Below are positions 60,576 through 60,747 of a DNA stretch of 64,000 nt, piece after piece (the first letter of the stretch is position 1; each line of letters opens with the position of its first letter). Source of the DNA: Escherichia coli (lineage in GTDB: Bacteria; Pseudomonadota; Gammaproteobacteria; Enterobacterales; Enterobacteriaceae); NCBI RefSeq assembly GCF_002854065.1, contig NZ_CP024147.1; one strand, given 5' to 3'. Made by a program: the position numbers and the translations under genes. The notes beneath the pieces were generated by a model that ran no database searches, was not told the origin of the DNA, and was given only the letters and a program-made list of their open reading frames with translations.

Positions 60576-60595
60576 AACACTCCCCTGTAAATAAA

Positions 60596-60612
60596 GTGGT
60601 CTGACCTGATCA
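60596..60612 (-). promoter_or_regulatory. candidate FadR operator upstream of fadIJ
   Basis: Sequence AGTGGTCTGACCTGATC resembles the FadR consensus (AnCTGGTCnGACCTnTT), about 25-40 bp upstream of fadI ATG. Confidence 0.55.
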
Positions 60613-60747
60613 TAGTCTTAACCATTTTTTTACATTTAGCCAAGCGGAGAAAAGGGAAAGTGGGAGCTATGACACAGAGAGAAAAGAAGAAGAGAAAAGA
60701 AAACGCCCCTGCCAGCAATTGACAGGGGCGTACGTACCCGAGAGGAA

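Follow-up and report, generated by a model that had tools for sequence, protein, structure and literature searches.

In Escherichia coli, long-chain fatty acids induce the fadIJ operon, and this induction depends on FadR (PMC9329746). The FadR dimer binds its operator via the N-terminal winged-helix domains and keeps RNA polymerase off the promoter; long-chain acyl-CoA binds to the C-terminal domain and FadR is then released (PMC9329746). The consensus operator is a 17-bp palindrome, aaCTGGTCnGACC(T/A)Gtt (PMC9329746), and at the fadIJ promoter the operator overlaps the start of transcription (PMC9329746, citing Campbell, Morgan-Kiss & Cronan 2003). The operon is also repressed by ArcA (PMC9329746), and together with fadL it belongs to the conserved core common to the FadR regulons of Enterobacteriales, Vibrionales and Shewanellaceae (PMC5343134). 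A FadR operator at fadIJ is thus already known, both from Campbell et al. 2003 via PMC9329746 and from comparative-genomics reconstructions of the regulon. Since the joint switching of fadIJ and fadL is established E. coli physiology, the value of placing the operator on the sequence lies mainly in correct annotation.

Several described sites can be set beside it. Binding of FadR to the fadL and fadBA (ATCTGGTACGACCAGAT) sites has been seen by gel shift (PMC3460868, PMC4259882), whereas the fadI site is known here from its sequence. All share the 17-bp architecture, the TGGT...ACC half-site logic, the same repressor and effector and a position at the core of the promoter or close to it. The two fadL sites stand in tandem with 7 bp between them, whereas a single operator is predicted at fadIJ. 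At fabB the same protein uses a site of the same 17-bp format, but there it is described as activating, and the half-sites are the variant TGATC/GACTT in place of the TGGTC/GACCT of the fadI box. The closest relative is the FadR box of fadE (K-12 AAGTGGTCAGACCTCCT), identical to the fadI box at 14 of 17 positions on the + strand. Both keep the TGGTCnGACCT core in full and share an unusual G in position 3, and each is a single site just upstream of a beta-oxidation gene; they differ at the centre of the box and in its two or three distal bases, and score 13.7 (fadE) and 16.0 bits (fadI) on the matrix described below. A more distant likeness is to the box of PdhR (AATTGGTnnnACCAATT), a palindrome of the GntR/FadR subfamily with the same GGTnnnACC core as the fadI box (10/14 match). 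The effector of PdhR is pyruvate and not acyl-CoA, and its effect on fadIJ is reported to be positive (PMC7660256); the flanks of the fadI box follow the FadR consensus, unlike those of the PdhR box.

The stretch of DNA analysed here (the window) is 64 kb of E. coli chromosome, with the region order fadJ–fadI–yfcZ–fadL. Positions 60576-60747 are exactly the fadI-yfcZ intergenic spacer. The 501 bases around this spacer are 100% identical to NZ_CM128593.1, and the region was found in 5425 of the 5426 complete E. coli genomes, where the annotation is likewise fadI and yfcZ. Downstream of the yfcZ terminator, within the regulatory DNA of a gene for fatty-acid metabolism, the spacer contains a palindrome at 60594-60610 which, judged from the sequence, is very probably the operator through which FadR represses fadIJ. 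The terminator separates the fadIJ promoter from yfcZ and insulates it from upstream read-through. The features of the region are collected in Table 1.

Table 1. Positions of the fadIJ regulatory features and of related sites and genes in the 64-kb window.
Feature	Position	Strand	Remarks
Predicted FadR operator of fadIJ	60594-60610	-	17-bp imperfect palindrome, centre T60602; AAGTGGTCTGACCTGAT on + strand, ATCAGGTCAGACCACTT in fadI sense
fadI CDS, 3-ketoacyl-CoA thiolase	59265-60575	-	From ORF list; so annotated by RefSeq in E. coli records that are identical or nearly so; first operon gene
fadJ CDS	57121-59265	-	Second operon gene; start overlaps fadI stop
yfcZ	end at 60748	-	Upstream neighbour of fadI
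Intrinsic terminator of yfcZ	60703-60731	-	12-pair stem, then T-run
CRP-like site TGTGTCATAGCTCCCA	60661-60676	-	Centred -61.5 from predicted start; class I position
Inferred -35 hexamer TTGGCT	60638-60643	-	Invariant in nine-genus alignment; 18 nt upstream of inferred -10
Inferred -10 hexamer AAGACT	60614-60619	-	Part of GTTAAgACT block; invariant in nine-genus alignment, conserved in 77-sequence anchored profile
Predicted transcription start A	60607	-	7 nt downstream of inferred -10
Shine-Dalgarno GGGGAG of fadI	60580-60585	-	ACAGGGGAG invariant in nine-genus alignment
fadL	61398-62744	+	ORF
fadL FadR site 1, AGCTGGTCCGACCTATA	61278-61294	+	Identical to gel-shift probe, PMC3460868 Table 2
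fadL FadR site 2, CACTGGTCTGATTTCTA	61302-61318	+	Identical to gel-shift probe, PMC3460868 Table 2
fabB FadR activator site, GGCTGATCGGACTTGTT	41030-41046	-	Identical to published gel-shift probe

On the + strand the box, AAGTGGTCTGACCTGAT, matches the FadR consensus at 15 of 17 positions, the full TGGTCnGACCTG core included; its position 3 is G where the consensus has C. The earlier note on this DNA had picked out the 17-mer AGTGGTCTGACCTGATC, which is present exactly once in the window (60595-60611, + strand); no other copy with up to 3 mismatches was found in the 64 kb, where 0.06 would be expected by chance. This 17-mer marks a real site, but its register is off by +1 relative to the canonical box, which is symmetric about T60602. 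The distance to fadI, given there as 25-40 bp, has to be corrected, as the box lies 19-35 nt before the A of the ATG (20-36 nt for the shifted 17-mer). In K-12 the box is found 27-43 nt upstream of the ATG; the distance is shorter here because the T-tract that separates the box from the Shine-Dalgarno sequence has 8 nt fewer in the present strain. The close resemblance to the fadL sites that had also been proposed is borne out for the common TGGTCnGA core and for the consensus (15/17), but the direct identity to the two fadL sites is only 11/17 and 10/17.

The T-tract reads TTTATTTATTTTTTTACAGG in K-12 and TTTATTTACAGG in the present strain, and the gap between the box and the ATG (60576-60593) is 18 nt here, 26 nt in K-12 MG1655 and 28 nt in another E. 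coli. Among the eight matches listed in a 40-nt search, one was full-length and seven began only at query position 6 or 9. An identity of at least 99% over 60400-60900 was seen in only 2 of the 5426 complete E. coli genomes, most being at 95-99%, which suggests that the window comes from an E. coli lineage less commonly sequenced.

The site and its score were computed with a FadR matrix of symmetrised log-odds, made from seven sites validated by gel shift (fadL 1 and 2, fadD 1 and 2, fadBA, fabA and fabB), with sequences as tabulated for the primers in PMC3460868 and PMC4259882; fadI was absent from it. Scoring against the threshold of such a matrix had been put forward in the earlier note as a check on the site, and with this fadI-free matrix the outcome was in its favour: the fadI box scored 16.0 bits (exact p = 1.4e-6 per position), the training sites themselves scoring 9.0-20.1 bits. 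On both strands of the 64 kb it was the top match outside the training set, the next untrained one reaching 10.8 bits, and only trained sites, those at fabB and fadL site 1, outscored it in the window. When both fadL sites were removed from the matrix the fadI box still scored 13.8 bits oriented and 13.7 bits symmetrised, tying with or beating the validated fadL site 1 and beating fadL site 2.

The matrix was calibrated on held-out K-12 upstream regions, those of fadE, fadH, fadM and iclR. Each gave one outstanding match (fadE 13.7, fadH 15.2, fadM 15.6 and iclR 19.5 bits), with a second-best of at most 6.1 bits. The fadI box therefore falls within the range of 13.7-19.5 bits and outscores the held-out fadE, fadH and fadM boxes. 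The fadI spacer has the same appearance, with a single candidate at 16.0 bits and a next best of 3.6 bits.

FadR sites in the window thus number four: one at fabB, the predicted one at fadI and the pair at fadL. One more exact TGGTCnGACC core, the third, at 13766-13775 on the - strand, was considered as a FadR site and rejected as a chance match; its full 17-mer scores only 5.9 bits and it lies inside an ORF. It sits near the 5' end of the large ORF 13724-15868 (+), the translated N-terminus of which we take to resemble that of Pta.

A score of this size is not in itself a proof. At the level of the fadI box chance would yield about 0.0005 matches in a spacer of 172 bp, but about 0.2 in 64 kb and, on an i.i.d. 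background, about 6 in a 4.6-Mb genome, so that the location and conservation of the box are needed as well, and both hold. It could be argued from these numbers that the palindrome arose by chance and regulates nothing, FadR acting on fadIJ indirectly or via another site. However, the spacer holds one candidate only, and invariance of that candidate across 78 species, amid neighbouring bases that are free to vary, would not be expected of neutral sequence. It is this conservation that excludes chance as the explanation, and we regard such an origin as extremely unlikely.

For the conservation, a FadI protein query against a single genome of each species gave 80 Enterobacterales loci, 78 of them with an upstream region. 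A box was present within 300 nt of the start of fadI in 78 of 78 species, at 11.0-18.4 bits (median 16.0), the genera sampled including Escherichia, Citrobacter, Salmonella, Enterobacter, Klebsiella, Serratia, Rahnella, Hafnia, Yersinia, Photorhabdus, Pantoea and Mixta. The AGGTCnGACC core was kept throughout, and within the box only the central position, the outermost ones and the one at which the consensus itself allows T or A were seen to vary. As controls, 1012 windows of 300 nt from the same loci were scored. Matches of at least 11 bits were found nearly all at the divergent fadL operators, and these act as a positive control; beyond them there were five other such matches among the 1012 windows. 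Furthermore, in a profile of 77 sequences lined up on the box without gaps the columns of the box are of near-maximal information, and the information falls to zero in the 3' flank. Similarly, in a MAFFT alignment of nine genera the box columns are invariant or near-invariant and the 3' flank is unconserved. Within the species, at least 5296 of the 5426 complete E. coli genomes match the stretch with the box and the -10 region at an identity of 95% or more.

The proposal of the earlier note that fadIJ is repressed by FadR together with fadL is supported by the matrix score, by the conservation in 78 of 78 species and by the published regulation (PMC9329746), and co-regulation of the two is the published view (PMC5343134). 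A full-text literature search with the fadI site sequence, in either orientation, gave no match, and no gel shift or footprint of FadR on the fadI site was found in the accessible literature. What is added here as a by-product is quantitative confirmation, by means of an independent matrix, held-out promoters and a footprint across 78 species.

A strict consensus promoter scan gave no minus-strand promoter in the fadI-yfcZ spacer, and the model of the promoter is therefore drawn from conservation. If TTGGCT and AAGACT are read as the -35 and -10 hexamers, transcription would start at around A60607, which in K-12 would correspond to about position 2460509 of NC_000913.3 on the minus strand, the FadR box would extend from about -3 to +14 and the CRP-like site would be centred at -61.5; the hexamers, the start, the position of the CRP site and the geometry of occlusion are all what we infer in this way. 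On this arrangement the box would overlap both the core promoter and the predicted start. Such a position fits repression by blocking of RNA polymerase, and it is consistent with the published description, in which the fadIJ FadR site overlaps the start and FadR sites generally overlap -10/+1 (PMC9329746). Another candidate for the -10 hexamer, TATGAT (60609-60614), was rejected: three other genera and another E. coli genome have G at its critical second position, and it has no -35 hexamer at 16-18 nt.

The CRP-like site matches TGTGAnnnnnnTCACA with 2 mismatches. At two mismatches this pattern is not above chance in the window, where 20 matches were found and 26 expected. Despite this lack of enrichment the site was retained for its position and its conservation, TGTG...GCTC.CA (in the block cTGTG...GCTC.CAc) being conserved across genera. 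A CRP site in the fadIJ promoter has been reported (PMC9329746); fadI is not mentioned in the main text of the paper cited for that site, Li et al. 2019. A second by-product of the analysis is thus a self-consistent promoter model, with a CRP-like site at -61.5 and the predicted operator at -3 to +14.

With a start at about 60607 most of the box would be contained in the short leader transcript, and it could be supposed that the conserved sequence acts as an RNA structure in the 5' leader of fadI and not as a DNA operator. The GGTC-N-GACC arms, however, leave a loop of 1 nt and cannot form. The leader folds no better than its shuffles (MFE -10.7 kcal/mol, z = 0.14), 105 of 200 shuffles being at least as stable, and no compensatory base changes were seen between the box and another segment of the leader. 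In addition the distance between box and start codon ranges from 14 to 157 nt across the Enterobacterales species, which speaks against a fixed RNA structure that involves the ribosome-binding site. The probability of an RNA function is, we consider, negligible.

The reading of the box as a DNA operator leads to the following scheme, in which the dependence on FadR and fatty acids and the response of FadR to acyl-CoA are taken from the literature. In the absence of long-chain fatty acids a dimer of FadR, a GntR-family protein with a winged helix-turn-helix, would occupy the box. As the box would lie over about -3 to +14 of a sigma-70 promoter, RNA polymerase would be prevented from binding or from opening the DNA. 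Fatty acids imported by FadL are activated to acyl-CoA by FadD, and the acyl-CoA binds FadR (PMC9329746); FadR would then leave the DNA and fadIJ would be transcribed. Transcription of fadIJ would probably be aided by cAMP-CRP at the site near -61.5, and under anaerobic conditions it is repressed by ArcA. The site would in this way explain how the appearance of long-chain fatty acids switches on FadIJ, the second beta-oxidation complex, along with FadL, the fatty-acid channel.

A further question is whether PdhR, the pyruvate sensor of the GntR/FadR subfamily, also binds the palindrome or is even its main ligand. A gSELEX peak of PdhR is found in the fadI/yfcZ spacer, together with a smeared gel shift, and in a pdhR mutant the mRNA of fadI, fadJ and fadE is 1.6- to 4-fold lower (PMC7660256). 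The PdhR box named in that work, cAgcGGTaaaACCtgac (60555-60571, inside fadI codons), matches the consensus AATTGGTnnnACCAATT at only 7/14 positions, and the FadR palindrome fits the same consensus at 10/14 in either orientation, with the GGTnnnACC core that is called essential there (PMC7660256). Against this, the flanks of the box are of the FadR type (TGGTCnGACC) and not those of the PdhR consensus TTGGTnnnACCAA, the PdhR signal at the fadI/yfcZ peak is modest (1266 compared with 9889 at pdhR) and the PdhR complex dissociated on the gel (PMC7660256), while the control of fadIJ by FadR is already established (PMC9329746). A palindrome that serves PdhR mainly or in addition is thus very unlikely; PdhR would in that case add a second ligand to the site, with FadR staying the main one. 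The FadR palindrome is around 40 bp from the published PdhR box.

The same pattern is seen at other promoters. PdhR binding has also been observed at the fadE, fadM and fadL promoters (PMC7660256), and the FadR boxes of fadE, fadM and fadL1 fit the PdhR consensus at 10-11 of 14 positions; the published PdhR box at fadE fits it at 8/14. The FadR boxes at PdhR gSELEX targets therefore fit the PdhR consensus better than do the boxes published for those targets, which suggests that PdhR may cross-recognise FadR operators, at least in vitro. That the FadR palindrome is a true PdhR contact too at fadI, with the same perhaps at fadE, fadM and fadL, and that the published boxes at fadI and fadE are mis-assigned, is a doubtful but not far-fetched suggestion. 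If it were true, acyl-CoA sensing by FadR and pyruvate sensing by PdhR would converge on, and perhaps compete for, a single operator, and the apparent 'activation' by PdhR could reflect the displacement of FadR, a stronger repressor.

Some minor features of the spacer can be added. The only GATC (Dam) site, at 60608-60611, overlaps the distal edge of the box and the region between -10 and the start. It is kept in the aligned Escherichia, Citrobacter and Salmonella sequences and is replaced by TATC in Enterobacter, Klebsiella and Escherichia sp. ESNIH1; it is therefore probably incidental. Directly after the yfcZ terminator there is a long polypyrimidine run, TCTTTTCTCTTCTTCTTTTCTCTCT (60677-60702, - strand), for which no conservation across genera was seen and no function is suggested. 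The spacer of the promoter itself (60620-60637, - strand) is unusually conserved across genera, as AATGTAAAAaa..GGTTAAgAC. Within it TGTAA and GGTTA, at a distance of 11 bp, resemble a direct-repeat ArcA-P box; a conserved ArcA site has been predicted (PMC1805755), and a repeat of this kind would fit both that site and the reported repression of fadIJ by ArcA.
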